Part shown: piece after piece, positions 1-44,458 of the stretch
Layout of the letters: the number at the start of each line of letters is the position of its first letter
Position numbering within the stretch: the stretch's first letter is position 1
Virus record (IMG/VR): IMGVR_UViG_3300044723_007969
Source: a virus
Taxonomy: Duplodnaviria > Caudoviricetes
Length of the DNA stretch: 64,000 nucleotides
Direction: 5' to 3' (one strand)
Notes under the pieces: model-generated
What the model was told of the DNA's origin: nothing
Database searches by the model: none
The model's input: the letters and a program-made list of their open reading frames with translations, nothing else
Made by a program: the position numbers and the translations under genes

Positions 1-135
1 TGGTGTTACATATACGTCAACTGTTCCGTCGCCGTCTGTTTTATTTGTAATGTAAATCACTGTAACTGCCGTGTCCGCAGACGCAGTGAAGGCCGCTGTT
101 ACCGCCGTTCCTACTTGAAAATTTGTTATTGCCAT
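1..135 (-). CDS. Partial (runs off the left edge) small beta-rich virion-type protein, MAITNFQVGTAVTAAFTASADTAVTVIYITNK...
   Basis: ATG at 135 lies 3 nt after the stop of the 139..981 ORF and the frame is open to position 1; translated by hand. Confidence 0.7.
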   Translation of the reverse strand, partial: MAITNFQVGTAVTAAFTASADTAVTVIYITNKTDGDGTVDVYVTP

Positions 136-138
136 ATC

Positions 139-981
139 TTATCCTAACGCAATGGCCAATGCCGTTGCTTTGCTTTTACTTATCAGTTCTCCTACGGTGC
201 CAGTTGCGATGTTTGAGTTTCTAAAATAGAGACCAGTTCCTCCGCCACCTGCTGTTTTGTTGTATAATATTGTTTGTGCTGTTGCTGTTGGATCTGTTGC
301 CATTGCTGAAAATGTTAGTGTGTCGTTAACGACCACGTTACCAGTTCCGCTGGCTTTCAATACAAGATCATCATTGGATCTTGTGGCTGTCACAACATTA
401 TCAACTATTGATACAGCATCGTTGGCTATTGAAGTTGTTGCTGTGATGTTGCCTGTGACTGCTAATACTGTTCCGTCAAATGTTAAATTTGCTTCGCCTT
501 GTATTGCGTCCGGACCAGTGATAGTTGTCACTTGATTGTTTGTTGAACCCGATAAACTTACACTACTCGTAGAGTCTACATAAGTTTTTGTTGCCGCATC
601 TGATCCTGCTGTTGGTTCAGCAACCTGTATTTTTGCCAGTGCCGTATCTACTATCGCATTACCGGTGCCATCTGATGTTGTTGTGACTGCTTTAAAAACA
701 TCGTCACCCTCGTTCCAGTAGATCGCCGCGTTGTTGGCCGCACCTCTGTTTATTAGTATACCTGCGTCAATGTCTGACGGAGTTGAATTGTTTCTGCTTA
801 GGATTATGATAGGGTCTTCAATAGTAAGTGATGCTGTGTCTATGACTGTGTTCGTTCCTTCAACGTCGAGGTCACCTTTGACAACAACTCTTCTTGAATC
901 TAAGACAATATCTTTTGTACCTGCCGCACCCGTGCCGGCTTGTATAGTGTAATCATCTGAGGTACGTAAATTCTTTGCCAT
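139..981 (-). CDS. Virion structural / fibre-like protein
   Basis: 280 aa, Thr/Gly/Ala-rich; 'IEDPIIILSRN...DAGILINRG...AIYWNEG' and 'DAATKTYVD' are typical fibre motifs; TAAATA late box just upstream. Confidence 0.7.
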   Translation of the reverse strand: MAKNLRTSDDYTIQAGTGAAGTKDIVLDSRRVVVKGDLDVEGTNTVIDTASLTIEDPIIILSRNNSTPSDIDAGILINRGAANNAAIYWNEGDDVFKAVTTTSDGTGNAIVDTALAKIQVAEPTAGSDAATKTYVDSTSSVSLSGSTNNQVTTITGPDAIQGEANLTFDGTVLAVTGNITATTSIANDAVSIVDNVVTATRSNDDLVLKASGTGNVVVNDTLTFSAMATDPTATAQTILYNKTAGGGGTGLYFRNSNIATGTVGELISKSKATALAIALG

Positions 982-1000
982 TTGCTATTATTTATGTAAG

Positions 1001-1028
1001 AAAAGGGGGAGCGTGTAACTCCCCCTTT
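1001..1028 (-). terminator. Rho-independent terminator after the 144-aa gene
   Basis: AAAGGGGGAG-TTACACG-CTCCCCCTTTT on the minus strand. Confidence 0.8.
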
Positions 1029-1046
1029 AAAGCACGTATTGTTCTA

Positions 1047-1481
1047 TTATCTAACGTCGATGTTCGCTTTGTCGGAATCCTGACCTTCGTCAGTACCCTC
1101 TGCTTTAAGCGTGTAAGGTTTGCTACCTTCAGCACCGCCGGCAGTTACATAATGAATTGTGTTGTTGAAGAACTTACTTACGTAAGCAACTGTTGAGTCA
1201 TCTAAGATAACTTGTACACAGAATTCACCAACGCCACTCGTGTTGTCGTTCGCGAGTGAACCTGGAGCAACTGCTTTAAGCATCATTACTACTTCAGTTG
1301 AATCTTCTAAGTGTATCTTGAATAACCTAGATGATCTTTGTGCAACAACGTAAGCCACTGTGGAATCAACTTTTGCTCCACCGAATGGTCTGTAAGCCGT
1401 AACCGCAATTTTACCAGAAAGGTCTCCGCCGAATGCGCCAGAGGCTCCTGATATCTTGTTTTTGTTTATTGGTCTTCCCAT
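1047..1481 (-). CDS. Putative capsid-associated (decoration-type) structural protein, MGRP- N-terminus
   Basis: 144 aa, strong SD (AAGGAG), late promoter, located downstream of gp23; function inferred from position. Confidence 0.6.
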   Translation of the reverse strand: MGRPINKNKISGASGAFGGDLSGKIAVTAYRPFGGAKVDSTVAYVVAQRSSRLFKIHLEDSTEVVMMLKAVAPGSLANDNTSGVGEFCVQVILDDSTVAYVSKFFNNTIHYVTAGGAEGSKPYTLKAEGTDEGQDSDKANIDVR

Positions 1482-1488
1482 TTGTTTT

Positions 1489-1577
1489 CTCCTTTAAAGG
1501 AGTCCAATCCTAGTTCTCCTAGGTACGCGGTTGTTATCCGCATAAGTCTTCTACAGTGGTAGAAGTACGTTTGAACT
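1489..1577 (-). promoter_or_regulatory. Structured 5' leader RNA (four-way junction plus SD-sequestering hairpin)
   Basis: AGUUCAA/UUGGACU closing stem around three hairpins (CUUCUAC/GUAGAAG, UAUGCGG/CCGCGUA, CCUAG/CUAGG); CUCCU-UUAA-AGGAG covers the SD; TAAATA at 1588-1583. Confidence 0.65.
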
Positions 1578-1662
1578 GTGTGTATTTATTATTTTTTAGG
1601 AGTTATAAAGTGTGTGGTTAAAAGGCCGATTCAATATGTCTCCATCGTCGACCTTTAAGTGA

Positions 1663-1770
1663 TTAACCTTGAACTTCCGGTACAGGCTGACCTGACCAAA
1701 GCATCCATGCGAATACGATCACGACTACTGCCGCACCTATCCATAGTTTCTTGTCTTTTAAATGTTTCAT
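1663..1770 (-). CDS. Unannotated 35-aa single-TM membrane peptide (MKHLKDKKLWIGAAVVVIVFAWMLWSGQPVPEVQG)
   Basis: SD AAGGAG 6 nt before ATG, TAAATA at 1793-1788, basic N-terminus then a hydrophobic stretch, terminator-like hairpin downstream. Confidence 0.75.
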   Translation of the reverse strand: MKHLKDKKLWIGAAVVVIVFAWMLWSGQPVPEVQG

Positions 1771-1797
1771 GATTATCTCCTTAACATTATTTAATTA

Positions 1798-1833
1798 AAG
1801 AGTGGCGCAAGATTAAATGGCTCACACCACTCT
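1798..1833 (-). terminator. Terminator-like hairpin after the 77-aa membrane gene
   Basis: AGAGTGGTGTGAG...CTTGCGCCACTCT followed by TTAATT on the minus strand. Confidence 0.55.
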
Positions 1834-1860
1834 GAGGTTACGTATTTCTAGATTTTTATA

Positions 1861-2094
1861 TTATTTTCTGTTGTAGATATGATATAAAATCCAAACTGCG
1901 ACCAATCCGATCAACCCTTGATCAGAAAAGCCTTTCAGTACGCCCTGGATGTTTCCGATTACCGAAACATTTGGCCAGAACGGAATACCTTGACCATTGA
2001 AAAGGATTTCTAAAACAATCCCCAACGCAATTAAACTTACTCCTACGTCGGCAATAGATTTCGCCCATCCTTTTACTTTCATCATGATATCCAT
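1861..2094 (-). CDS. Small membrane protein with two TM segments
   Basis: 77 aa with two hydrophobic helices; SD GGGAGG; TAAATA and a GAAA-loop hairpin in the leader. Confidence 0.75.
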   Translation of the reverse strand: MDIMMKVKGWAKSIADVGVSLIALGIVLEILFNGQGIPFWPNVSVIGNIQGVLKGFSDQGLIGLVAVWILYHIYNRK

Positions 2095-2243
2095 AATTGG
2101 ACCTCCCTTTGATTTAAAGTTTCTTTCGAAACTCTGAATTATTTAGAAGTCTGCAACCAAAGTAAAACTACAACATTTGGTCTGCGGATGGTATGGACAC
2201 CAAAATAATTTTTAATAAGAGCGGTTAATGAAAATTAAGTCAC

Positions 2244-2273
2244 AAAAAAAGGGCGACCGAAGCCGCCCTTTTT
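2244..2273 (-). terminator. Rho-independent terminator of the capsid operon with a cUUCGg tetraloop
   Basis: AAAAAGGGCGGC-TTCG-GTCGCCCTTTTTTT directly after the gp23 stop; UUCG terminators are typical of T4-like phages. Confidence 0.9.
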
Positions 2274-2295
2274 GAAATAAAAATAAACCTGAGGC

Positions 2296-3480
2296 TTATT
2301 TGAATTTTAAGTTTCCTGAAGTTACAGCAACTTTTCCAACGTAGTCAGCCGCGTTACCAAGAGATGATGCAGTGTTTGTTAACTCTACATAACCATATCT
2401 TGTTAAGAAACCTACTACCGGTTCGAAAGTTGATGGATCAAGAACAACGCCTGAAGACATTAAAGGTATGTAAGGACAATAGAACGCTGGAGCGTCTGCC
2501 TCACTTGCACCTTTGTAGCCAACTAGTACGTCTGTACTGTCTGCCGCGTAAGCGTCTACGTATACTCTCATCGCACCGTTTAAAGTTCCAACGAATTTAG
2601 TATTTGTTGGTGCTTCAAATGTACCCTCAGTCGATCTTGCGAATGCTGAAGTTGTTGCTGATTGAAGAATAGTTAAAGCAGTTGGAGATACTACTGCGTA
2701 GTTTCCAGCGCCTCTTCTAGTTCTTGAAGCGATTTGGTTAGCAACTCTATTGATTAGAACAGCCAATGCCGCGTGTTCATCACCAACGAATGTTGCAGTA
2801 CCTGATACAGCCGCTTGGTCAAAAGTCTCAGAAGCAGTTCCTGCCAATGTTCTTAATGATCCAATTACTTCTTGGTCGATCTCAGCAGTAATCTCTTGAG
2901 CTAATGCCGCCATGATTTCTGCTTCTACATCGATACCTTGTTGTGCTTGTGCATCTTGAGCCGCTTCAAAAGTCCATCTTGCTGATAGTTTTCTTGATTT
3001 AGCCTCAACCGCTTGTTTCAAGATTTGGATAGATAATCTCTTACCTGGTGTACCCTCTAACGCCGCTGTAGAAGAACCTTTTGCGTTTCCTTCTGTAGTG
3101 TCGTCTGCTTGGTTACCTGAGTAAGCTCTAGCAATCTTGAATGGAGATAATGCTTCTTCACCAGCCGTTGCGTTGTTGGCTACTGTGTCCGCGTATCTTA
3201 TTCTTAGTGTGTGGATTTGACCTACAGGACCAGTCATCGGTTGTACACCAACGATCTCGTTCGCAATAACAGTCGGCATAACCCTTCTGATTACTGGTAG
3301 GATAACCCTGTTTAACGTAGCAACGTTACCGGCACTTGTTGCACCAGCAGTAGAAGCCTCAGACAAGTATCTTTTAGTGTTTTCTAACACTACGTCCATA
3401 GTCTTCTTCTTGTTACCTGCTAAACCTTCAGTTAGAGCGGCTTTAGTTTCGCCCCATTTTGATTCAAATATATCTGACAT
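2296..3480 (-). CDS. gp23: Major capsid protein (T4 gp23-like)
   Basis: 'VGVQPMTGPVGQIHTLR', 'VEAKSRKLSARWTFEAAQD', 'AFYCPYIPL', 'FEPVVGFLTRYG'. Confidence 0.95.
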   Translation of the reverse strand: MSDIFESKWGETKAALTEGLAGNKKKTMDVVLENTKRYLSEASTAGATSAGNVATLNRVILPVIRRVMPTVIANEIVGVQPMTGPVGQIHTLRIRYADTVANNATAGEEALSPFKIARAYSGNQADDTTEGNAKGSSTAALEGTPGKRLSIQILKQAVEAKSRKLSARWTFEAAQDAQAQQGIDVEAEIMAALAQEITAEIDQEVIGSLRTLAGTASETFDQAAVSGTATFVGDEHAALAVLINRVANQIASRTRRGAGNYAVVSPTALTILQSATTSAFARSTEGTFEAPTNTKFVGTLNGAMRVYVDAYAADSTDVLVGYKGASEADAPAFYCPYIPLMSSGVVLDPSTFEPVVGFLTRYGYVELTNTASSLGNAADYVGKVAVTSGNLKFK

Positions 3481-3504
3481 TTGTAATCTTCCTTTGTTTA
3501 GTTG

Positions 3505-4572
3505 TTATATACCCGCTAACTTACGGATACTTGTTATATCAGCATCTTCCCTTTGTGCTCTGTCGCCGCCTGACTCAGAAAGTATTTTGGCACCTTCTTT
3601 GGTCACAGCCTTGTCAGCCATCACGTGTGGTAGATACTTGTTGAACGAAGCCTCAAGTTTCGCTGTTGAAACTGATTCTAACAACTGACTCATTACTTCA
3701 CTCTTTTCTTTGCCCAATGGTTTGAGCATCTCAGCCATCTTTTCCTTGCGTTCCATCAAGTCCGCTTGTCTCTTGGCTTCCGCCTCCTTGGACTCAATCA
3801 CCGCTTGTTTCTCTTCGACGGCCTTCTCAGCGTCTTTTAATTTAAGTGTAGTTTCATCCACAACTCTCATTAACTTCGCAGACTCAGATTTCTCATTTAA
3901 GTAAGAATTCTGGTACTCCGATGCAAACGCTTCGAATATTTTCTTACCAAAGTTGATTTCTCTAGCAGATGTAATGTCTTCCTTCAAGCCTTTTAGCTCT
4001 TCAGCAAGTTTTTTATTAACTGCAGATTCTACAACTTTAGCAGATCTTGTTATGAAAGCCTCTTTCATCTTAGCCATTTGTTTTTTGGCTTCGGCTACTA
4101 GTTTGACTTTCGTTTCCACAACGCCTTTTTTGTCTTCATGGAACTCTTTAATTTCTTTTGCAAGAGCGTTTACTACGAACTCTTCCATTTTCTTAAAGTT
4201 TTCATGAACACCTTTTCTGTCGCCGTGTAGTTCTTTTAACTCTTCTGATAGTTTAGATAGGATGAATCCTTCTAATTTAGCAGAATGTTTGCCTACGTTT
4301 TCTTTGTAAGCGATTTTTTCTTGTGCAAGTGCTTTTCTGTCTTCAACGAATTTCGTGATCTCTTCAGATAACTTTTCGTTCATCATTTTGTCAATAGCCT
4401 CGATCATGTTTGCTTTGTCGTGTTCGTATCTTTTAGCAAACTCTTCTCTTAACTCAGCGCCTACAACTTCTTTGTTTTCTTTAATCTTCGAATCCCAAGC
4501 CTCTTGGATGCCTTTTTGCACATCTTCTGAGATCGCTCCTGACTCTACTAATTTTGATATTGCGTCTATCAT
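3505..4572 (-). CDS. gp22: Prohead core scaffold protein (gp22-like)
   Basis: 355-aa Glu/Lys coiled coil between the protease and MCP genes. Confidence 0.8.
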   Translation of the reverse strand: MIDAISKLVESGAISEDVQKGIQEAWDSKIKENKEVVGAELREEFAKRYEHDKANMIEAIDKMMNEKLSEEITKFVEDRKALAQEKIAYKENVGKHSAKLEGFILSKLSEELKELHGDRKGVHENFKKMEEFVVNALAKEIKEFHEDKKGVVETKVKLVAEAKKQMAKMKEAFITRSAKVVESAVNKKLAEELKGLKEDITSAREINFGKKIFEAFASEYQNSYLNEKSESAKLMRVVDETTLKLKDAEKAVEEKQAVIESKEAEAKRQADLMERKEKMAEMLKPLGKEKSEVMSQLLESVSTAKLEASFNKYLPHVMADKAVTKEGAKILSESGGDRAQREDADITSIRKLAGI

Positions 4573-4573
4573 G

Positions 4574-5206
4574 TTATTTTAGGTCCTTTATTATGTTGGT
4601 TAGTGCCTCCTTGAGGAACTTTTGTGCTTTTGGGTCATTTCTAACTTCAGCCGCCAACCCTTTTGCCATGTTACCACCCTTTGTATTCATTAGGTGTTCG
4701 TAAATTGGCGTTGGGTAAGCACCTGGTGCCGAAGGTTGGGCAACAACATCGACTGTGATGATCTCGAAGTCTGAAACTTCGCCGCTTCCGTATTCGTTCA
4801 TGTTTCCAGAACCTCTACTTGAAACGCCTAGTTTCACACCTGATTGCAACATAGTTTCGACAAGTTTGCCCATCGGTGTCGGTAGGATTTTCATCTTACC
4901 GTATCCATTTGGTCCGTCCATCCACATTTCTGTGATCATGTGAGACACACGGTCCAAATTAATCTTTAAATCATCTGGGTGATCCACTTCACCTAACACA
5001 GAGTATCCAGAACTGATCTGATCGTTCAGTGTTTTAGTCGCTTTTGCGATTTCTGACACTGGGTAAACTCTCTGATTAGCGTTCTTGATCCCACCTTGAA
5101 TACAGATACCCTTCATGTACAAATCCTTACCGTCTTTTCCCTCGTGTAAGATCTGCACTCTGGCCTGATCAAATGTTAGATTCTCTCTTAGGTATAGTGA
5201 TGCCAT
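4574..5206 (-). CDS. gp21: Prohead maturation protease (gp21-like)
   Basis: 'LGEVDHP...INLDRVSH', 'LGVSSRGSG', 'DVVAQPSAPGAY'. Confidence 0.95.
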   Translation of the reverse strand: MASLYLRENLTFDQARVQILHEGKDGKDLYMKGICIQGGIKNANQRVYPVSEIAKATKTLNDQISSGYSVLGEVDHPDDLKINLDRVSHMITEMWMDGPNGYGKMKILPTPMGKLVETMLQSGVKLGVSSRGSGNMNEYGSGEVSDFEIITVDVVAQPSAPGAYPTPIYEHLMNTKGGNMAKGLAAEVRNDPKAQKFLKEALTNIIKDLK

Positions 5207-5233
5207 CCGACGATCTCCCTGTTAAATCAACAA

Positions 5234-6106
5234 TTACTTAGAAGCAACTGGTGATTTTGCTGATTTATCAGAACCATCCGCAGTTGAAGGTTTAACTTCC
5301 TTCATCTTTGGCTCAGTAGTTTGGTTCATGCTTTTCGCTGTTGGAGCCGGTCTTCCTTTTTCTTCTGCTCCGCCTTTAGCGATGTTTGAACCACCTTGGC
5401 CCATTTTTGTGCCTGCGTCTGCTACTGGTGATTTCTTGTTATCAGCATGGTCGGCAGTGTCCGCTTTAGCCATGTTTTTGTATTCTTTTACAGTTTCTTT
5501 GGCTGGTGCTTCTTTGCTTTCCATCTCTGGAGTTAACTCTGGTGCTAAAGATTCTTCTTCTTTTTCTTCTTCACCGTCTTTTTTGTCGCCCATCATTGCT
5601 TCGAATTCTGCCTTTAGTTCATCTAAAGCGTCTTCCAAGTCAACTACTCTGTCTTCAACATCGCCTTCTGCGTCTTTTTCAGCGTCCATGTCTGCTGGCA
5701 TTTCTTCACCTTTATCTGCATCCATTTCGCCTTCTTCTTCTGCTGAGATGTCTTTAACCAATTCGTCAGTTGCGTCGCCGCCTACTTCTTCAATTGATTC
5801 TTCTTCAGTAGTTTCAGATTCAGTTGCTTCGTCTTCGATTTCAACAACTTCGTCTACTTGCTCGTCTTTAGATTCTTCAGTAGTTTCTTCTACTTTTTCC
5901 TCTTCAGATGCTTCAGTTTCTTTAACTTCTTCTTTAGCGTCTTCTTTTGATTCTTCTTTTGCCTCGGCAGTTACTTCTTCGTCTGCTAGGTTCTCGTAGA
6001 TGTCTCTTGACTTTTCTACTACGATTTCGTGGAATAAAGCCTCTGCTTTATCGTTTTCTTCATTTATTAGTAATTCTAATAAACTCTCAAATTTATTGTT
6101 TGACAT
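5234..6106 (-). CDS. Highly acidic prohead core protein (gp67-like)
   Basis: 290 aa, Glu/Asp-rich, upstream of the protease; SD AAGGAG and TAAATA upstream. Confidence 0.65.
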   Translation of the reverse strand: MSNNKFESLLELLINEENDKAEALFHEIVVEKSRDIYENLADEEVTAEAKEESKEDAKEEVKETEASEEEKVEETTEESKDEQVDEVVEIEDEATESETTEEESIEEVGGDATDELVKDISAEEEGEMDADKGEEMPADMDAEKDAEGDVEDRVVDLEDALDELKAEFEAMMGDKKDGEEEKEEESLAPELTPEMESKEAPAKETVKEYKNMAKADTADHADNKKSPVADAGTKMGQGGSNIAKGGAEEKGRPAPTAKSMNQTTEPKMKEVKPSTADGSDKSAKSPVASK

Positions 6107-28800: not shown

Positions 28801-29323
28801 TGATCAGATAGTGTATCATCCGGTCAAGTACAAGATACTTTTCGGTAGCAACGCGGACGAGGAATTACAAGCCACGTTCAAAGTAGTTAAGAATCCTAAA
28901 ACCAATGTGACAGACGCAGTAATAAAGACAAGAGTAGTTGCGGCAATAAACGAATTCTTTGCACTGGACAACTGGGATTTTGGAGATACATTTTATTTTA
29001 CAGAATTAGCCGCTTACATACACAATCAATTGGCTCCGGATCTGTTGACAGCAGTGATAGTTCCTAACCAATCAGGACAGGGTTTTGGGTCTCTGTTCCA
29101 GATAGATTCAGCGTCAGACGAAATTTTCATCAGTGGGGCCACCGTTGGTGATGTAACAATAATAAGTGCATTGGGAGCCAATCAGTTATTGGCATCCGGC
29201 ACAGTTGTGACATCAACATCAACTGCCACGAACAATACTACATCAGGATCAGCAGTATCAGGCTCTACTACAACAACGTCCGGTTCAGGTTCAAACACCG
29301 GCAGTAGTGGATCAGGATACTAA
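25835..29323 (+). CDS. gp6: Baseplate wedge subunit (gp6-like, extended)
   Basis: 'DFETLR...YPDDFNDF.ESS', 'ENFLETAERRDSV', 'LVFGDG', 'QNRMITAEDY'. Confidence 0.88.
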   Translation: MATTDRQNRLLVAEDWQKIYQSFQQADFKSYDFETLRRTMVAYLRENYPDDFNDFVESSEYVALIDLIAYIAQALSFRVDLNARENFLETAERRDSVLRLARLINYNAKRNRPATGLLKINSMSTTQDVVDSSGTNLSNQTVIWNDSANSNYREQFIAILNAANQTGQLFGNPRESGPIGGIDTEVYTLSSNQIDLPLFKYVKSIGGVSRQFEIVPSTINNSDSIYESDPIPGTGLTYTYRSDGGGDSSNNTGFFFLFKQGTMQYADFTVDTAITNYIRSITVNNINDSDVWLYKLDQFGQMSEKWTQVPALSGNNAIYNSLSGSERNIYNVVTKADDKIDLVFGDGTFSNLPLGSFRTYHRISDNVKYAITPADMQNVTLSVPYTDNFGAQQSLTLSVGLRQSVYNSAAAETSESIKEKAAQVYYSQNRMITAEDYQVVPLSASQEIVKVRSINRSASGISRAKEILDPSGAYSNVSVFADDGILYREESTQQFTFTFNNRGDIQSIMDGSIENKLKQPYSRHFYYFKYGTKDLSTLTATWNSTTTSTNTNTGYFTSTGALSIGDFATSNFKFAKPGALVKFTSPDTRGFLNDSLVTAGTDDAQDRKWAKIGALVGDGANSGVGNLESGVGPVTLSSVIPNGAVASAVIPNFTTSFAQDLELNMMDRIEQFEEFGLRYDINSETWKVITATNLSTSSVFSLDNTGDTSATNLDASWWFKFTNDGNTYTVTYRKLEYIFESESQNKFHYDTEEKIYDYKTGKSVKDTVKVLKTNSLISTGNSIGYPITWQVTDTVKEADGFQDNRKVKVGFYDDDDDGVVDNPELFDIIVEPTLSESTKFVFFEKYTSYDNISRFRPYAASNFVVTQNESDINLNTATYTDNQLFYFYASDEDVIKKYDLSTNTLSTTTDYLARKGRRSINFQYKHNAGQETRIDPSVSNIVDVYMLERTYDNLYRIWLQDGGVKPATSTSDQLRINYSGTLNPLKSLSDQIVYHPVKYKILFGSNADEELQATFKVVKNPKTNVTDAVIKTRVVAAINEFFALDNWDFGDTFYFTELAAYIHNQLAPDLLTAVIVPNQSGQGFGSLFQIDSASDEIFISGATVGDVTIISALGANQLLASGTVVTSTSTATNNTTSGSAVSGSTTTTSGSGSNTGSSGSGY

Positions 29324-32300
29324 TGGCAGATAACACAACTAATTCACTAACAAATAACGAAGTTGTCAAACAAGGCAACAACGAGTACAGACGTACGGTT
29401 CAACATTTACCTGCTTTTTATAGAACAGACACTAACCAGAGGTTCCTTTCCAGCACCGTAGATCCTTTGATACAGAAAGGTGCACTTGAAAGACTAGACG
29501 GGTTCATAGGTAGACAAGACGCATACACAAGGCAAGTCACAGACAGATATGTTTCTGCAACCAATCGGGATAGATATGCATACCAACTGGAACCGGCAGT
29601 AACATACACAAACAGAGACACAACGTCGGTCAACCCAGAGGATCAGGTCAAGTTCACAGGTACGTATGATGATTACATCAACCAGATCAAGTACTTTGGA
29701 GGAAAAATCAATAATCACGACAGACTAAACAAAGAAAAAATATACAGTTGGAATCCTGCGATTGACTACGACAAACTGATCAATTACAGAGAGTATTACT
29801 GGATACCAGAGGGACCGGGATCCATAGAAATAGATTCTGTAGGACCAAATGCAGTGGCGGAATATTCAGTAGAGAATTTAGCACAAGGTGCCTACAACTT
29901 CTCACACAGGGAGAATGAAAACAATCCTATATTGACACTTTACAGAGGCAACACATACAAATTTAATGTAAACGCAAAAGGACATCCGTTCTACATAATG
30001 ACTGAGCCATACAAGGACGGGTCGACAAATTTATTTTACACGTCAGGTGTGACCAATGCTGGCGCAGACACAGGGACAGTGACTTTTACAGTGCCTACGG
30101 GAGCACCGGATATACTTTACTATCAGTGTGGTAATCATGATGCCATGTATGGTATCTTACAAATAAAAACTATCACGTCGACAACAGAAATCAATCCTGC
30201 CGATGACATAATAGGTGCAAAAAATTACAGTCTGAGAACTTTAGATCTTTCAAATGGTATGAAGATCAAGTTTCCGGCCAGCCTAGTGGGATCAGATTAT
30301 CAGAACAGGGAATACTACGTTGAGGGCGTTGGAGATTCAATAACATTGACAGACGTTGATGACATGATAACTCCGGCCAGTTATTCCACAGAGACGACAG
30401 TATTATATGATGCAGTTGGTTATGACACAAGACCTTATGCAAAGGCTTTCTACACACCAGACGCTAAAGATTACATAACAATTAAGAAGGATTCACGTGA
30501 CCAGAACTCCTGGTCAAGATATAACAGATGGTTCCACAGATCTGTGATTGAAGAGACTGCTAGGGTTTCGGGTTTCACACCTGTACTGGATGAGGACAGC
30601 AGGGCAAAGAGACCCATAATTGAGTTTGATTCAGGACTAGCACTTTATAACCATGGTACGGTAGCCAAAAGATCCGTAACACTTTTTGATACAGTAACGA
30701 CAGATGCTTTCAGCAGTGTGGTCAAACAGACAGGTTATATCATTGATGGATTACCTGTAGAAGACGGAATGAGAGTTGTGTTTTCTGCAGACACTGATTC
30801 TACAGTTAAAAATAAAATATATGTCGTGAACTTTGTCACAGCAGGAGATTCCACACAGGTAATATCCTTAACAGAAGCATCAGACGGCACACCAGCGGCC
30901 GACGAAAGTATTTTTATTGAGTTTGGTTCAGCAAACCAAGGAAACACATATCACTATGATGCAACATCTGAATCATGGAAATTATCTCAACAGAAGACCG
31001 GAGTGAACCAACAGCCGTTGTTCAAAATGTTCGACAACGAACATACTAGTTTCGACGATGCAACAACGTATCCCAACTCATCTTTCACAGGTGCAACTGT
31101 TTTCAAATTTGCAACGTCGGATACAGCACCGACAGACACAGTATTGGGTATAAAAGTGAAATACAACACTGTCAACAACATCGGTGACATAGTGTTTGAA
31201 TCAGATCATACATCTGGAACATTCACATACAAATTAGGTACTACAACATTTACAAAGAATCTCGCCGAGGGACATCTACACTATACAACAAGCAGAACAA
31301 CGCACAATTCTAGAAGTTCGTGGATACAGAGCACAAACCCTAGCAAACAACGAGTCATAAGGACTTTCACAGTTGGGAAAACAGAAAAAAAATTATTCCC
31401 TGTGGACTGTTATGACAAATCAGCATTATTGACCGATCTTGAAATTTCAGTTTCTGTGAATGGTGAGAAAAAATCGCTGACAACAGATTACACATTAGTA
31501 AATGGTACTAAAAACAGATACGTAAAATTTGTCAAAGAACTTATTGTGGATGACCAAATAAGGTTATCTGTGTACAGTGCCGCCGACAAAGTGAAAGGCA
31601 AAGGCATTTATGAGGTTCCAGACAACTTGTCCACAAACAGCATGAATGGCAAGTTAGGCACATTCACTTATGGTCAGGTGTTGAGACATGTAAGAGATAT
31701 ATTTGAGAAGAACACTAATCTCACAGGATCGGTGCCAGGTAGCACAAATTTAAGAGATAATCCAGACTCACGTTTTCTAGGTGGTACAATACACCAACAC
31801 GAAGGTCCATTACTGCCGGCAATATACGGGCTGATAGATCGAGATACTAATTTAATTAATGCCATTGAGTACACAGCTCATGAATATGAAAAATGGTATG
31901 ATGCATTTCTGACACATATAACAGGTACTGCTTACGAGGGAGTTGCCGCTGATAGGGTGGATGAAATAATCAGCAGTATTACTACTGGAAGGAATTCGAG
32001 TTTTCCTTTCTACTATGAAGACATGTTGGGGTATGGAGAGAATGTTACAACTAGATCATACACGGTGTTGGGTGCATCACAGACAGAATATGCAATAGAT
32101 TCAATTCATGACATAACCAAAATAAGCAATAGGGCAGTGTACGTTTATCTTAATGATGTGCAGTTGTTGGTCGGCTCACAGTACACATTCAGCACCACAG
32201 ACGATAGTGTCAACATAACAGCAACACTTACCGAAGGAGATAGGATCGTAATAAAAGATTACGCAGACACAACAGGAAGTTACATGCCAACTTCACCGAC

Positions 32301-35300
32301 CAAACTAGGCATGTATCCAAAGTTTACACCAGAAATATTCACGGATGACACATACATCACAAGCACGACAGTGATAAGAAAACATGATGGATCCATAATT
32401 AAAGCATACGGTGACGAACGTGATTCTTTAATACTGGAATTAGAGAAAAGAATTTACAACAATCTTAAGACATCGTACGATAACACACTTATCAACATAA
32501 ATGACGTATTGCCAAATGTTTTTTCTTCAACGGAGTATACGGTAGATGAAATAAATGACATAATGGCAACAGATTTCTACTCATGGGCGGGACGTGGAAA
32601 TGTACAATACATCAGTAACACAACATTCGTAGAAGGATCACCATTCACTTACAACTATGCACGATCAACATCCAACAAGTCAGGTGACAAGTTGCCGGGA
32701 TATTGGAGAGCCATATACAAAGAATATTACGACACAGATGCACCTCACGTGAGACCATGGGAGATGCTAGGACATTCAGAAAAGCCAACAGATTGGGACA
32801 CAACTTATGGAACTGCACCTTACACCTCAGGTAACAGTATTTTATGGAACAAAATTGCCACAGAGTCAGGAAGGTACGGCAAACCAGGCATACTAAATTA
32901 CTTGCCGGTAGACACATCAGGTAACCTGCTCGACCCGTTGGCGATAGGGTTAGTGGACAACCTCGACGTGGCAGGCAGGTCAGCAGGATGGAAGTTTGGT
33001 GATCAATCACCAGCAGAAACTGCCTGGAGGAGATCGTCAGCATATACTTTTTCAGTGATAAGAACATTGGCACTGACAAAACCCGCCAAGTTTTTCAGCA
33101 ACTTATTTGATCCATCTAGATTGACAACAAATGTTGCAGGAAATCAGATAGACACAGACACAGGAGTCAGGTCCACACTGGCCACTTCTAAATATCACCT
33201 AGAGACTGTAACAGACAACAACACAGGAATAACGACGAGGTACCACACAGCGGGTTACCAGCCCTTTATTGTGAACCACTTGGTGTCAAAGAACCTTGAT
33301 CCAAAAACTTTCTACTATGACAGGATGAAAAATCTTAAAGTTCAACTGGCATACAAATTGGGAGGATTCACTGACAAGGATAATATAAAAATATTAACAG
33401 ATTCAGTATCTCCAGGATCAACATCAGGATCCAAGTTCATACCTGATGAGAACTACAAGATTTTATTCAGGACGTCAAACCCTGTTGACAGTTTCCAATA
33501 TTCGGGTGTACTGATTGAGAAGAACACGGATACAACAACAAAAACAGATGGTTCTACTGTAACAAATGTTGGTGGGTATAAAGTTCTAGGTTATTCAAAA
33601 TCAAAACCGTATTTTAACTTCAATTATCCGATAAAGACCACAACTGCTTCAGCAGTGTCAGTGGAAGGTTCGGTGACAGTAGAGAAATTTAACATCTACC
33701 AAGAAGCCACACAGACTGTGCCTTATGGGCATGTGTTCGACACCATACAGGATGTGGCTGACTTCTTGTTTGGATACGGACACTGGTTGGAAGACCAAGG
33801 GTTCCGCTTTAATAAGTTTTCAAAGGAACTGAAGGAAACATTGAACTGGTCAAACGCAGTTAGAGAATTCTTGTTCTGGACAACACAACAATGGACACCA
33901 GGATCAGCGGTAACAGTATCACCTGCGGCAGACGGTTTCGAGTTAGACACAACAGACGGTATTGTAGGCAAAATGCGAAATCTTTCGGGAGACTATTCTA
34001 TACTTGACTCCGGTGGAAGAAAAATAGATGTAAGAGAAATATCAACAAAGAGATTAGGTAAAACATTCGAGTTAGGAATCAAATCTGCAGATGTTGGACT
34101 ATACAATATTGCTTTGAACACCGTACAGAAGGAACACATTCTGTTGTTTGACAACAGCACCGTGTTCTCGGATATCATATACGAACCATACACAGGATTT
34201 AGACAAGAGAGATTAAAACTTGTTGGATGGAAAACAGCCGGATGGAACGGCGACTACTATGCTCCAGGGTTTGTGTTTGATGCCGCACAGGTCACATACT
34301 GGTTGGCCAACACAGATTACAGGATCGGGGATTCAGTAGAGTATCAGGCCAAATTCTATGTGTCCAAGGCAAATCACAATTCGGGACCTAAGTTTGACAT
34401 AGAGAATTGGACATTGAAAACAGAAAAACCAGCACCACAACTAATACCAAACTTCGAATACAAGATTTCACAATTCAATGATTTTTACAATCTAGAAACG
34501 AACAACTTTGATGAATCTCAACAAAAGTTAGCACAGAGATTGATCGGGTATCAGTCAAGGGATTACTTAGAAAATCTTTTCGTCAACGACGTATCACAGT
34601 ACAAGTTCTATCACGGATTTATAAAGGAGAAAGGTACCAAAAATGCAATAGACAAGATACTCAAAGCCAAGTATGAGGGCGAGGACATTGATCTAGATCT
34701 ACATCCTGAATGGATGATAAGGACAGGAAATTTTGGTAACACAGATTCAACGGAAAGCATACAGATAACACTCAATCAAAATCAAATTACTTCAGATCCT
34801 CAGAGCATTGAGCTACTAGAAAACACAAAAGACACGCCGGAGTACGCAAGATCAGAAGGTGTTGCTAAAGATAATTTTTTCTACAAGCCAGTGGAGTACA
34901 CAACCTCAACAACGTTCAGTAGGTTGGATTACACTAAAGAAGGAGTTAATAGAGATACTGCACAGGTATTCAAGACTGCTGGCTATCCACAGTTGGGACA
35001 GGTACAACACACAGCATTCAATATAACAGACATTTTCAACCTAGATGTAAACAGAGTTGCATCAAGCGAATTGATATGGGTGGCCAATAAATCTAATAGA
35101 GATTGGGACGTGTTCAGGATCACAGCGGGAGATTTTAAAATTGCAACTGTGCGTTCAGTAAATGGTGCCTCGCAGTTGGAACTTATCTTCACAGGTTCAC
35201 ATGGATTGTCACAAGGTACACAGACAACAGAAGCAGATTACTTCGCTATAAGCAACAGCGAGGAAGAAACGCTTAATGGAGTTTATCAGGTCGCTTCGAT

Positions 35301-38300
35301 AGTGGACCACAGGACTGTACTCATTGATTACACAGGTAATACATCTTTCATACCGGCATTGGAAGATGGATCGACTGCAGACACTTATGGCAATGTCTAT
35401 AAGTTTATATCTGTGAGAGTAGATTCCATGGACAACTGTAATGACAAAATAAACTATGACAAGTACAGGGATAGAGACAACAGCATAGAACGTGAGGGCG
35501 ACAAGGTTTTCGCAGACGCAGACAGTTCGGGACTGTGGCGTGTTTATGAAAAGCAAGATCCATACACACTGAAAAACATTTTATCTCCAGATTCAGCAAC
35601 GACCCAACAAGATTTTGGACACAGGATAGTTGCACGTAATGACGGAAGGACGGTGATCGCATCTGCACCTGGCAAAGCACAAGGGGAAGTACACTTCCTG
35701 TTCAGGTCCACAGCAACACCAGGGTCACTGTTCAGACCAAACTCAACGGTTACAACGACGGCCGGAAATGACAATACAAGTAAACTAGGTGAATCACTGT
35801 CGATGAGCACGGATGAGAACTTTGTTATTGCGGGTGCACCGTATGCCAATTCTCTTGGTTCAGATGGTAGCACAAGATTCGCAGACGCAGGAGCCATAGA
35901 GTTATTTGTGTGGGATCCGTCGACGTTCAAGTACGGAACACTAGTGACAAAGAGACCACCCACAGACCAGGCATCACAGAACTTTGGCTGGGCACACAAG
36001 ATCGCTGAGCCAGGTGCAAGTTCAGTCAGAAGCACGCCAACAAAATACATGTTTGTGTCCGCACCTGGACTTAATTCAGACACGGGCAGAGTGTACATGT
36101 ATGAGTGGGGTATAGGTGCTGATGGATCAACGTATGATTCATGGACTCAGTGTGCAACAATAGATTCAGCAGAAGGTGGATCAGGGCAGAGATTCGGTCA
36201 CCGGTTGGAAGTCAACGACAACGGGGACATATTGGCTGTAAGTTCGATCGCACCAGGCAACGCAGGCAAGGTTGACATATTTGTTAGATCATCACACTCC
36301 AATGACGATAGTGTGGCACATTCATTCACTCATGTACAAACACTGACAGGAGTATCAACAGATGGCTCTAGTTTGAACACACAATTTGGTGATTCCGTTG
36401 CAATGAGCAAAGACGGAACACGATTGATTATAGGAGCACCGGGCGTTGACAAAACAGAGCAAGACGATGCAGGTGCAATATATTATTACAAATGGAACGC
36501 AGACGGTTCCACAAACACATACACATTACAACAGACCATGGAATCACCTGATTCCCAAGTCAACATGAGATTTGGAACGTCATTAAGCATGAACCAAGCA
36601 GGCACCAGGTTGATCATAGGCGCACAGAATTTTTCAAACGTCAGAGAGATGAAGTTCGACGCCGGAGAAACAACATTCGATCTACAAGACACAACAATAT
36701 CAGATACCAACACAGAATCAGGCAGTGCCTACACGGCCACGATGTACAACACCAAATTTGTCATAGATGACAGATTGATCACGGATAGTGTGTCAGCACA
36801 CGACGGGTTCGGCAAAGGAGTTTGTGTCACAGACAACACAGTGCTGGTAGGAGCGCCACAGGATGATGGCAACATCGCATCGGACGGAAGTAGCAGGGTG
36901 CAGAACGACGGAACACTGTCGTGTTTTGATCTATCTGTTTCAGGGGAATATGCATGGAAAAATATAACTTTTGAGACACCGTTGATCGACATAGAGAAGG
37001 CCGGACAGGTATTTGATTTCAACAACAAAACTAAACAAATAAGAGATTTCTATGACCTTTATGATCCAGTGCAAGGTCGTATATTGGGGGTAGCAGATCG
37101 TGAAATCAATTACAAGACAGAGTGGGATCCAGCGACCTACAACACAGGCCAAGACGAAAATACAAAAACACCATGGGCGGAGGAACACCTGGGAGAAGTA
37201 TGGTGGGATCTATCTCAGGTAAAATGGCTTTGGTATGATCAAGGTACACAAGAATACAAATTTAATCACTGGGGACAGAAATTTCCAGGATCGACAATAG
37301 ACATATATGAATGGACAGAGTCACCCGTGCTTCCAAGCGTATGGAACACCAGGTCTGGCACACAACAAGGAGCAGTGGAAGGCATATCAGGAATAGCCGC
37401 GTATGGTGATGACTCTAGTTATAACATAGTTCAGAGATATAACTCTTCCGTCAACAGATTTGTGAACATCTATTACTTCTGGGTAAGGAACAGATCAACT
37501 GTACCTACAAATAGTGTTGTGACGAGAAAGAACTCCACATCATTCGTGTCAAACCTTATAGACTTTCCGGAAAGATTTTCATACAAGTATTACTCTATAA
37601 CAGACACCAACATGTTGATCATCAACAAGATAGGCGCACTGACAAACAGTGACATTGTTCTCAACATAGACATCCGGACAAACAACTTCGAGGGCGATTC
37701 ACACAGCGTATGGAAACTGGCGAAAGAGGGTGATAAGGACTGGAGACCAGGACATCAGATAGAGACACGTTGGTGGGATTCACTCACAGGCAAGAACGTA
37801 GCAGGTGATATTGTTCCTGATCTAGACCTACCGGTCAACAGGAGATATGGAAACAACATAAGACCTAGGCAGGGGTGGTATGTGAACAGGTTCAATGCAT
37901 TGAAAGAAATAATAGATTATGCAAATGATGTGTTGAAGAAACATCAACTAGTAGGAACAATCAATCTTAACAACTTAAACTCTGCTGATCCAGAACCAAC
38001 AGCACAGAGTTTAGAATGGGACGCATATGTAGACACCTACGCAGAATTGACATACATCGACACTAGAGAGTTCTCTGGAACAGTCAACTATCTTGTGAAG
38101 GCGGACGAAACGGCCAATAATTATTGGGCAATATATACTTGGGACGGTACTGAATGGACTAGGACAAAATTACAAACTTACAACACCTCCGCTTATTGGG
38201 GTTACACAGATTGGTATCAAGTACTGGAACATCATGGTGAGACAGGTATGGTACATGATGCAAATACAAAAATTGACAAACAGGTGACATATCAGTATGA

Positions 38301-41300
38301 ATTGGATACATTGGATCTTGCTGTTGGCAAACATGTAAAAGTGACATCAGCCGACACGGGTGGATGGAAACTGTTCATGAAAACAGCAACAGGATGGAGC
38401 AACGTTGGAACAGAAAACGGCACAATTAGATTAAAAACAACACTGTATGATTATTCCCAGGATGCCACGGGATTTGCAGGACAGGACAGTTTCGACGACA
38501 ATTTCTTTGATCAGGATCCGTCAACAGAAACTAGAAAAATTTTAACAGCACTCAGAGATGATCTTTTCATCAATGATTTAGCGATAGAATACAACACATT
38601 GTTCTTCACCGGACTTAGAAAGGTTCTAGAAGAACAAACATATGTGGACTGGATGTTCAAAACATCTTTTATCAATATTAAGAATTCTGTAAGGAAACTA
38701 GATCAGAGAAAAACTTACACCATAGGCACCGACAGTTGGATAGAGAGTTACATAAATGAAGTTAAACCTTTCCACACAACGATTAGGGAGTACAAGTTAG
38801 GTTACACAAACACAGACACACATGATGGTATATTCTCTGACTTTGATAATCCAACGTTCTATGACCCAGAGACGAACGCTATAAGATCTTTAAACGTTGA
38901 CTCGGACACGGACAAGTTGACCGAATTCCCACACCAGATGTGGTATGACTACCATAAGAAATACGTGCAGTCCATCACAGTGACACACGGAGGTTCAGGA
39001 TATCAACAGATACCGATAGTTACGGTGCTCGGCGGAACAACAGGATCCACAGGACCTTTCCAGATACAGGCTACAAGTTCATCAGGCACAACAAGTGGAC
39101 AGTTTGGTTACTACTATCCTTTGTTCACAAACGAGAAACAAGCAGAGATTTATGACACACAGAATGGTGGAACTGGCACAACGAAGACTTACACGTTCGA
39201 TGGCTATCCGGGTTCTTTCTATGGACCAACGGCATCAACAGCAGAATCAACAAGTGACAAGTCTGGGGCCTTCAAGATGTACATAACACCAACAAACACT
39301 GCGGCAACAGCCACAGCGACAATACAGAATGGTGCAGTCACAAAGATAACTGTCACGGGAATTGGTGCAAATTACAACAGCACTCCTGTGGTGATAATAT
39401 CCGGGGGACGAACGGACGGTTCAACACCAACAGACACTGCCAAGGCATACGCAAATTTGAACAATGACTTGGTCAGAGATCTAGATACAACAATAAAATT
39501 TGACAGGGTGTCTAGCACGTCCAGGGTACAGGACTGGACGGCGTCTACGGCGTACGCTTACAATGATCTAATTAGACACAAAAATCAATTGTACAAAGTG
39601 ACAAAAGCGTTTACGGCAACAACCGATTTTGATGACAATGTAGCAGATCTTTACAAGGTTTATGGAGATGAGACAGGTTTAACAGCCGCTGACAGGACAA
39701 AAGGTTTCTACACGCCAGGCACAGGAATGCCGGGCAACGAACTTGACCAGGTCATGACAGGTATCGACTACGGCGGAACAATGGTGACAGGATTGCTGTT
39801 CAACCAGAGCCAAGGGTGGGACAGATCGGGTTGGTATGATTTTCCATGGGACAACTATGGAGGTTCTAGAGTCAAGGCATTCAAGGGAGATGGTTCATCT
39901 AACACCTTCACATTTGATACCGCACCTGCAACAACAGAAGTTTATCAAGTCTATATAACAGAAGATGACAGCACAAGGAGAAAACTCACAGATGTTGTGA
40001 GGGGTGATGGGTCAAGCGTGGTCATGCCTGTTGGCGGATTGAGTATAACACCGAACGCAAACGCATTGGTAGAATTCATACCGTTCGATGACGACGGTGT
40101 GTTGACACCGACAGATGACAGGACATTGGATTCCATAGTCAAAGGTGGACTTTTTGGATCAGCATTAGGACATGCACCTAGTGATATAATGTTAGAAGGC
40201 GACGACTTTGTATCACCAGATACTAGTTACGCACCTGAAGAGACTGTGCCAGGTCAGTTGTTTGACACATTAGACATAAAAGTTTACACATCACCAGAGT
40301 CAGGAGTTCCATTTATCAGCGAGAAAAATTACACAGGAAATGGAAGCACAACAACTTTCGCCATAGGAGACTTTCCAGGAACATTGGGATCAGTGACAGT
40401 GAGTGTTGGTGGCGTTGTGAAAAAACTAACAACAGATTACACAATCAATGTTGCAAACAAAACAATAACATTTGGATCGGCACCTGCTAACGGCAGTGTA
40501 ATAGCAACTAGGGTTTTTGCTATATCAGGGGATAATTACAGGGTGCTTGACACATTCGTTGGAGATAATTCAACAGTATCGTTTACGACTTCGTCAAGAA
40601 GTGAGTTCAATCTAGATTCAACTGTATCAGACATATACGTGACACAGGATGGAGTACCAAGGACAGATTTTACACGAACCATTACAGCGAATACGGTTAC
40701 AATAACTTTCAATTCACCGGTACCACCGACAGGTGCCTTTATACAGGTTGCAGGATTCAACAAGTCAGCAAGTTCTCCAACAAGGAGTTTTGCAAGTATA
40801 AGGAATCAAGAACTAACATATGCAAGTGGAACGAACAGATACACATTGACATATCCACCAGGTTCTATAGGTCCATTCTCAGGTTTGACAACAGTGGAAG
40901 TAAACGGTAGGGTGCTACGAGGACCAGACAACACGTATTATGTTGGTGACGGAAGCACATACACTTATGGAGTAGTGTCAGGTCTAGAGGATGATTCCAC
41001 AGTTGACCCAGCAAAAACAATTTCATCTGCTTCGCAGGTAGAAGTTTATGTGAACGGAACTAAGAAAGATTTAAACACCGACTACACAGTTGATATAGGA
41101 AATCAAAATATAGAGTTTGTTACATCAGCAGTACCAACATCAACAGATGTAATCTGTATTTCAACTTTAGTTGATCATCAGTACTTTAATCAAGGCACAG
41201 ATATCATATTGGTACCTAGTGCTATAACTTCACCGTATTCACTTTCAAACAGCGACAAGATTTCAGTAACAACATTTAATAATGCTTTGGGAATGAAACA

Positions 41301-42213: not shown

Positions 42214-42222
42214 ATACACTAG

Positions 42223-42948
42223 ATGACACAGGACAACAAACCAACAGAATCAAAAGAAGAGAACAAAAAGCCACAGGATAACACAGGTGTTATGATGACT
42301 GGGCATATCAAGATTTTCGACCCAGAGACAGGTGAGGTTATCGTAGACAAAAGAAACGCGATACACTATGAAAACATGTCTCAGGCACTGGCCAATTCAC
42401 TGGCCAACAAGTCAACAGGTTTCGTACACGAGATGGCGTTTGGTAATGGCGGAACATCCGTCGATCCAACAGGTGTAATTACATACCTCACTCCAAACTC
42501 AACAGGCAGTAATGCCACTTTGTACAATCAAACCTACTACAAAGTCATAGATGATAACTCTGCAACCAACAAAGACACAACAAGAAACAAGATGGAAGTG
42601 CGACACACAGCAGGTAACAAGTACACTGACATTGTTTGCACTTGTACTTTGGACTACGGTGAGCCAACAGGACAAGCGGCGTTTGACAACACTACAGATT
42701 TCAATGGTGCATATGTTTTTGATGAATTAGGATTGAAGAGTTGGGAAGGTACAGAGAATGGCGGAACAAACAAATTGTTGACACACGTTGTATTCCACCC
42801 AGTACAGAAATCTTTAAACAGATTGATCCAGGTTGATTACACTCTAAGAATACAAAGTTTAACAACATTCACTGAAACTAGTTCTACTGCACTGTCAACT
42901 TCAAACACAGTGAGTGGTACAACATCAGGTGGTAACACAGGGTACTAA
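42223..42948 (+). CDS. Baseplate / tail-associated structural protein
   Basis: 241 aa; 'MAFGNGGT', 'FDELGL', 'LLTHVVFHPVQKSLNRLIQVDYTLRI'; TAAATA 6 nt before ATG. Confidence 0.65.
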   Translation: MTQDNKPTESKEENKKPQDNTGVMMTGHIKIFDPETGEVIVDKRNAIHYENMSQALANSLANKSTGFVHEMAFGNGGTSVDPTGVITYLTPNSTGSNATLYNQTYYKVIDDNSATNKDTTRNKMEVRHTAGNKYTDIVCTCTLDYGEPTGQAAFDNTTDFNGAYVFDELGLKSWEGTENGGTNKLLTHVVFHPVQKSLNRLIQVDYTLRIQSLTTFTETSSTALSTSNTVSGTTSGGNTGY

Positions 42949-44448: not shown

Positions 44449-44458
44449 ATACAGGTAT

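Follow-up and report, generated by a model that had tools for sequence, protein, structure and literature searches.

A freshwater-2 RNA in the late leader of a capsid-adjacent gene of an uncultured aquatic jumbo phage

The locus and its transcription unit

The window analysed here is a 64,000-nucleotide stretch of the viral record IMGVR_UViG_3300044723_007969. Near its beginning, the minus strand carries a gene for a small protein starting with the residues MGRP, preceded by a leader in which a cloverleaf-like fold had originally been predicted. Just upstream, on the same strand, are the genes for an S77 prohead protease, a scaffold and a capsid protein (PF07068 Gp23, 4e-100). At 64 of 88 related loci the arrangement runs from the protease through scaffold, capsid, (small ORFs) and leader to the MGRP gene and a 280-residue gene, most of the other loci being truncated. 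Two small hydrophobic ORFs of 35 and 77 residues occupy the space between the capsid gene and the leader (1663–1770 and 1861–2094, both on the minus strand); the longer one is conserved in 17 related loci. The elements of the unit, in order of transcription, are as follows.

1621..1656 (−): hairpin of terminator type belonging to the upstream unit, directly ahead of the box (−13.1 kcal/mol, z −2.8), then UUUU
1583..1589 (−): T4-type late-promoter box, AATAAATA / (N)TAAATA, with the TAAATA late box itself at 1588–1583, read in the sequence
1576..1577 (−): predicted transcription start, placed by T4 late-promoter geometry
1577–1571 (−): closing stem, 5′ strand AGUUCAA, pairing with UUGGACU
1565–1548 (−): hairpin P1, CUUCUAC-CACU-GUAGAAG, from the Rfam alignment
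1544–1524 (−): hairpin P2, UAUGCGG-AUAACAA-CCGCGUA, from the Rfam alignment and covariation
1523–1509 (−): hairpin P3, CCUAG-GAGAA-CUAGG, with the family-invariant loop word AGAAC, from the Rfam alignment
1507–1501 (−): closing stem, 3′ strand UUGGACU, forming 7 bp with AGUUCAA, one of them G-U
1502–1489 (−): SD-masking hairpin CUCCU-UUAA-AGGAG, palindrome CUCCUUUAAAGGAG, from sequence and folding
1494–1489 (−): SD AAGGAG, within the SD-masking hairpin
1481–1479 (−): AUG of the MGRP-start gene, from the sequence
1047..1481 (−): MGRP-start gene, 144 residues, served by the leader, from the ORF list
1002..1028 (−): intrinsic terminator of the one-gene unit, an 11-bp stem (−18.5 kcal/mol, z −4.7), then UUUUCUU

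The terminator at 1028–1002 was missed by a consensus scan and shown by folding, and many relatives have clear GC-rich terminators at the place equivalent to 1621..1656. In T4, late transcription starts 6–7 nt after the box. A box of the TATAAATA-like kind expected for a T4-type late unit is conserved upstream of the leader in relatives, a TAAATA being present in all but one of the first 89 copies (the exception is truncated by the contig end) at a distance of about 10–50 nt from P2. Within the window, 10/10 ATAAATA sites are followed by an ORF start at a distance of about 100 nt or less and point in its direction. At three of these (981–995 on the minus strand, and 42210–42225 and 44445–44461 on the plus strand) the ATG follows 7–8 nt after ATAAATA with no SD, and these three genes would have leaderless or near-leaderless late mRNAs if the box is a late promoter. 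The co-oriented sites near ORF starts, including the three at 7–8 nt from an ATG, support the reading of the TAAATA box as a late promoter with a start about 7 nt downstream, here at A1577/G1576, the first base of the fold. Leader and gene are covered by metatranscriptome (RNA-library) contigs. Two of these, from two runs, include the upstream side and end at 1575 and 1581; since the end of a contig is not evidence of a transcript end, their agreement with the predicted start is only a weak hint. Elsewhere in the window, a divergent intergenic region with a near-palindromic stretch (11097–11165) separates oppositely oriented genes and contains ATAAATA boxes on opposite strands (11113–11119, plus; 11145–11151, minus).

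A megablast search of window positions 1–6000 against GenBank phages gave no match. At the protein level, the capsid protein is 68–72% identical to those of the jumbo phages Sinorhizobium Phosso (469 kb), Vibrio 2.275.O, Pseudomonas PA5oct and Cronobacter GAP32; the source is an aquatic, uncultured jumbo myovirus whose capsid protein is of the gp23 type. The tail/fibre-side module of the window includes a single ORF of 4296 residues (29323–42213, plus strand) after ORFs of 1162, 911 and 823 residues, which fits a jumbo phage.

Fold of the leader and membership of the freshwater-2 family

The box and all of the helices named in the original prediction were found at their coordinates on the minus strand. 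The MFE structure of the leader from RNAfold comprises the proposed four-way junction of three hairpins together with the SD hairpin, at −30.1 kcal/mol; shuffled leaders average −16.4 kcal/mol (z −4.6) and 0/200 shuffles fold as well. The description of the region as a structured, conserved 5′ leader of the MGRP gene that begins at a late-promoter box is likewise supported. The closing stem had also been thought to compete with the hairpin that buries the SD, which is not supported. The two overlap by two bases only (C1502 and U1501) and both are present in the MFE structure, with pair probabilities in the window ensemble of 0.5–0.74 for the closing stem and 0.83–0.97 for the core of the SD hairpin. 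The ensemble loses only about 1.2 kcal/mol if the closing stem is forbidden and about 2.8 kcal/mol if the SD is opened; folded alone, the CUCCU/AGGAG hairpin has −5.6 kcal/mol. The closing stem and the SD hairpin coexist in the predicted fold and probably stack. They share two nucleotides, occur together in the MFE structure and the closing stem adds only about 1 kcal/mol; by this fold the leader is not a two-state switch. A further pairing suggested at the outset, that of the 5′ AGUUC with GAACU, is possible in sequence, the complementarity being present, yet it would disrupt P3 and its probability in the nested-fold ensemble is accordingly close to 0. Neither can it explain the invariance of the AGAAC loop, since most copies begin with GUC rather than GUUC.

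A cmscan of the whole window against Rfam gave one above-threshold match, RF02980 (`freshwater-2 RNA', type Cis-reg), at 1565..1479 on the minus strand, scoring 75.6 bits (the curated gathering score is 49.9 bits) over the full length of the model (positions 1–84 of 84). No other Rfam family matched within 1400–1700 even at E<=1. The leader, for which no named family had been recognized, is a copy of an already catalogued RNA family and not a new one. To our knowledge, freshwater-2 has remained an orphan since 2017 and had been assigned no organism, partner or function. A full-text literature search for the name `freshwater-2' retrieved only unrelated water-chemistry papers. The sequences that hold the motif come from viral, estuary, seawater and marine metagenome runs, in agreement with an aquatic origin. 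The motif reportedly stems from the comparative screen of Weinberg et al. 2017.

In the RF02980 consensus, an unpaired tail with AAGGAGAAAAcAAAUG at its end comes after three hairpins in a row. The window shares with it the three hairpins, the conserved P2, the AGAAC loop, and the 3′ SD and AUG. Unlike the model, the window's lineage has an extra 5′ strand, outside the modelled region, that closes the hairpins into the four-way junction, carries the anti-SD word CUCCU where the consensus is drawn unpaired and is without the start-codon complement in the P2 loop that most freshwater-2 copies possess.

The outline of the window's fold (about 77 nt forming a four-way junction, closed by 7 bp and with 7 nt in the loop of P2) had raised the further idea of a tRNA-sized mimic, a cloverleaf recognized by tRNA-handling enzymes or by the ribosome. 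The likeness to tRNA is confined to the window's lineage, the four-way closure being absent from most family members, and the loop of P2 ranges from 3 to 16 nt among relatives. ARAGORN detected 0 tRNAs or tmRNAs in the window and no tRNA-clan model matched at E<=1 within 1400–1700. The equivalent of the D arm would be a 7-bp stem with a 4-nt loop and that of the T arm would have a 5-nt loop without T-loop sequence, and the 3′ strand, continuing into the SD, leaves neither a free 3′ end nor a CCA. With detectors failing, the arm and loop geometry wrong and the junction not conserved, membership of the tRNA or tRNA-like class was rejected and mimicry is scarcely credible.

Copies of the motif were collected through the protein. 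21 IMG/VR loci were fetched using the MGRP protein and 20 were scanned with the covariance model, all 20 of which carry freshwater-2 above the Rfam threshold directly upstream of the MGRP homologue. Pattern scans enlarged the set to 81–82 and then to 170 unique copies. In the first pattern scan 67/67 true copies precede the ATGGG/ATGGC start of an MGRP/MARP-family ORF, and 170/170 unique copies end at an ATG with GGN or GCA as codon 2 (MGRP or MARP start). A scan of genome contigs gave one match (NZHE01000016.1, 6267–6373), a type-B copy (see below) in a 54-kb contig with the order protease, scaffold, capsid, MGRP gene. This is a phage contig that was binned with a bacterial genome, the MAG labelled Rickettsiales bacterium MED657, and the label is no reliable evidence of the host.

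In the comparison of homologous leaders, as proposed with the original prediction, the core P1–P3 covaries and the closing stem and SD hairpin are lineage-specific. In a model-based alignment of 62 distinct copies, double (compensatory) changes occur at 7/7 pairs of P1, at 2/7 pairs of P2 (the remaining five being invariant) and at 4/4 modelled pairs of P3. In the same alignment 92% of the cells are paired, compared with 37–48% when the partners are slid. These double changes and the high level of pairing indicate, at the level of aligned sequences, that the three-hairpin core is a real, selected structure. The invariant words ACUUAUG, GUAG and the AGAAC loop were searched for pairing partners and none was found to explain them.

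The MGRP protein has more than 1000 homologues, all unnamed. Neither Pfam nor PHROGs holds a family for it or its 86 aligned relatives, a tblastn search against GenBank phages gave no match at 1e-3, a profile search against PDB sequences gave nothing meaningful and an Atlas feature search returned unnamed clusters only, below 0.9. An AlphaFold2 model (86 sequences) is all-β, with a pLDDT of 85.7 and a pTM of 0.80. Foldseek found no match to this model in the PDB at E<=0.001, and VIA-align (wide) gave a best Z of 4.5, the hits being small SH3/Tudor/KOW-like barrels at Z 4.0–4.5 that are generic and weak. In BFVD the matches (E 6e-6 to 2e-4) are uncharacterized proteins from uncultured phages and from Atu_ph07, a jumbo phage of Agrobacterium. 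Matches to giant repeat proteins (NHL, Muc_B2, glycosyltransferases) were discarded as spurious products of β-repeats or low complexity.

Downstream of a nearly invariant RNA core, the MGRP family diverges to 17–25% identity, with the N-terminal MGRP and a Q(R/K)(G/S)xxKF word kept. One related locus (L080, 449–2120) contains two tandem MGRP-family paralogues, each with its own freshwater-2 leader and TAAATA box; the first paralogue (367 residues) has a C-terminal PA14/GLEYA domain of lectin type, which is carbohydrate-binding. Genomic position, fast evolution and the lectin fusion together suggest that the MGRP protein is probably a virion-surface or decoration protein.

Lineage-specific elements and proposed masking of the ribosome-binding site

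The copies were sorted into five groups by the sequence that follows P3.

Type A (the window's type): AUUGGACUCCU...AGGAG after P3
Type B: UUAGGCUCUGAAC after P3
Type C1: AUCGGACUUCU after P3
Type C2: AUAGGACUACU after P3
Short form D: P3 followed almost at once by an A-rich spacer and the SD

Form D, with 93/170 unique copies, outnumbers the other groups and has neither the 3′ strand of the closing stem nor the anti-SD word; the 3′ strand is present only in the long forms of the family. Within type A both closing strands are invariant and there is consequently no covariation to be seen; in other lineages the closing strands are GUC..GAU or GUUC..AGAGC, or a partner strand is missing. The closing stems of types A and C1 differ by a single clean compensatory replacement, A-U to G-C, and by a position that has turned into A.G. 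When the duplex energies of cognate and non-cognate 5′ strands and tails were compared, the type A closure (−6.4 kcal/mol) was better than expected with p about 0.02. Type B closes in another register and far more strongly, through AGAGC/GCUCU and GUUC/GAAC (−11 to −14 kcal/mol, p<0.01 versus shuffles), and types C and E do no better than shuffles in this test. A figure of 87% pairing for the closing stem in an Infernal-fitted alignment was discounted, as inspection revealed forced, spurious pairings in the short forms.

The word CUCCU is retained throughout type A, with hairpin loops of 3–6 nt. The anti-SD stem cannot covary because the SD is fixed, and conservation is its sole support. The cloverleaf closure and the SD hairpin are lineage-specific extras that are absent from most copies and are not features of the family. 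Within the window's lineage the burial of the SD by CUCCU-UUAA-AGGAG stands as originally described, the SD being mostly paired by prediction: its mean predicted probability of being unpaired is 0.17 in type A (15 unique copies including the window) versus 0.72 in the short forms. These values bear on another possibility, a protective and not a regulatory masking, in which the structure would keep an endoribonuclease of phage or host away from the GGAG of the SD or from the leader. The T4 enzyme RegB cleaves at GGAG, and GGAG is invariant and base-paired in the window's lineage. Most lineages, however, leave it predicted to be open, which makes such shielding most improbable as the role of the element.

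A second potential mask lies in the loop of P2. Here, CCC[AG] complements the UGGG of the start region and is present in 87/156 copies in which codon 2 is GGN and in 0/14 in which codon 2 is GCA. GCC[AG] shows the reverse pattern (0/156 and 4/14, respectively). The Fisher p is about 3e-5 for each comparison of codon 2 and loop, a value that ignores phylogeny; the four GCC[AG] copies have differing stems and tails and apparently represent about three lineages. From the sequences, the shift from CCCR to GCCR with codon 2 GCA is a compensatory change across a putative family pseudoknot. CCAU, complementary to AUGG, occurs in another 15 copies. In a shuffle control of the P2 loop against the start region, the excess of complementarity is small only (3.54 versus 3.19), and the covariation with codon 2 is the more informative test. 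A start-codon complement in the P2 loop was found in 0/17 type A copies (the loop is AUAACAA in the window) and in 0/4 type B copies; type B has neither a strong anti-SD hairpin nor a P2-loop complement. Masking of the ribosome-binding site by interchangeable means looks like the conserved property, and control of translation in cis is therefore favoured.

Codon 2 (1478–1476 in the window) has a bias of its own. It is GGA in 76 of the 79 Gly2 copies from the first set of 82; elsewhere in the MGRP genes GGA makes up only about 23% of the glycine codons and GGT is the commonest. The preference suggests a constraint on the RNA at +6, for which loop pairing gives no explanation.

Proposed translational control and its alternatives

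Family membership, core structure, gene context, the lineage-specific extras and the covariation of the P2 loop with the start codon are direct observations on the copies collected. Beyond them, we infer a transcription start, a direction of regulation and a partner. The late transcript of this one-gene unit would most likely start 6–7 nt after the TAAATA box, so that the RNA would begin with the first base of the fold and would present P1–P3 and, beyond them, the strong SD AAGGAG, A-rich spacing sequence and the start codon of a small protein predicted to be all-β. In most lineages the P2 loop (CCCR) may pair with the UGGG of the start region, forming a pseudoknot that would mask the ribosome-binding site. 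In the window's lineage this complement has apparently been lost, and a local CUCCU/AGGAG hairpin, stacked on the extra closing stem, could act in its place. A trans-acting partner would probably stabilize or relieve the mask, and the MGRP gene product is the obvious candidate, purely by conjecture. It is moderately probable, on balance, that the leader acts in cis on translation initiation through masking of the ribosome-binding site, with a trans partner probably setting the mask. The translational control envisaged in the original prediction thus keeps a probable role in initiation, the SD being predicted to be paired, and loses its two-state switch. The SD is perfect and the spacer is A-rich, as in highly expressed genes. 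The masking may only adjust the level of expression and not act as a switch.

A small-molecule or ion riboswitch would place a ligand pocket in the junctions and loops and use the pseudoknot or SD hairpin as its expression platform. Sequence-invariant junctions and loops around covarying stems would suit such a pocket, and start-region masking by a pseudoknot is known from some small riboswitch classes, which the predicted arrangement resembles. However, the gene belongs to a late virion module with no metabolic logic, and its context suggests no ligand. The platform varies between lineages, with none in type B, the two helices of the window coexist, and the P2 loop varies in length as described above. 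A riboswitch is very unlikely.

With cis-acting masking still the preferred reading, a more specific version of it can be formulated, in which freshwater-2 of giant aquatic phages would serve a capsid-surface protein as its autogenous translational operator. In its free, unassembled state the MGRP protein would attach to the invariant P2/P3 core and keep the ribosome site closed, and the lock itself would have been swapped in evolution between a pseudoknot and an anti-SD hairpin. The strict coupling of RNA and gene and the small β-barrel fold with its weak SH3/Tudor/KOW matches bear on this proposal circumstantially, and it is offered as a rather doubtful one. Autoregulatory operators with start-region pseudoknots are known from the E. 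coli rpsO/S15 and α-operon/S4 leaders and from that of T4 gene 32. Like these, freshwater-2 is a structured leader abutting one specific gene, most of its members have a potential loop-to-start-region pseudoknot and its RNA is more conserved than the protein. It differs from them in that the window's copy has a plain anti-SD hairpin, there is no sequence relationship and the binding of its own protein is hypothetical.

Taken as one more copy of a catalogued family, the window's leader is of modest value. Together with its relatives it firmly ties freshwater-2 to the late leader of the gene after the major capsid gene in uncultured jumbo myoviruses of the PA5oct/GAP32-like capsid lineage, and the differing predicted modes of masking turn an orphan cis-regulatory motif into a concrete hypothesis of translational control.

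The setting of the leader would also suit a constitutive mRNA stabilizer or expression enhancer, a compact 5′ structure that would protect a heavily used late message against decay from its 5′ end and keep the ribosome site insulated, without regulating anything. The closing stem of the long forms begins at the base predicted to be transcribed first, the one-gene unit has a late promoter of its own, a perfect SD and a terminator on either side, and the RNA-library contigs span leader and gene. On the other hand, the short forms, which are most of the copies, have by prediction a single-stranded 5′ end of 8–15 nt that would not block 5′-end sensing, and a stabilizer has no need of near-invariant loops and junctions or of a loop that covaries with the start codon. 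This explanation is considered unlikely. The T7 φ10 late leader and the ompA-type 5′ stabilizer are single simple hairpins without conserved loop sequences. Freshwater-2 resembles them in placing structure at or near the first transcribed base of a strong late message; in contrast to them, it has a multi-hairpin core with invariant loops that is kept across very divergent phages.
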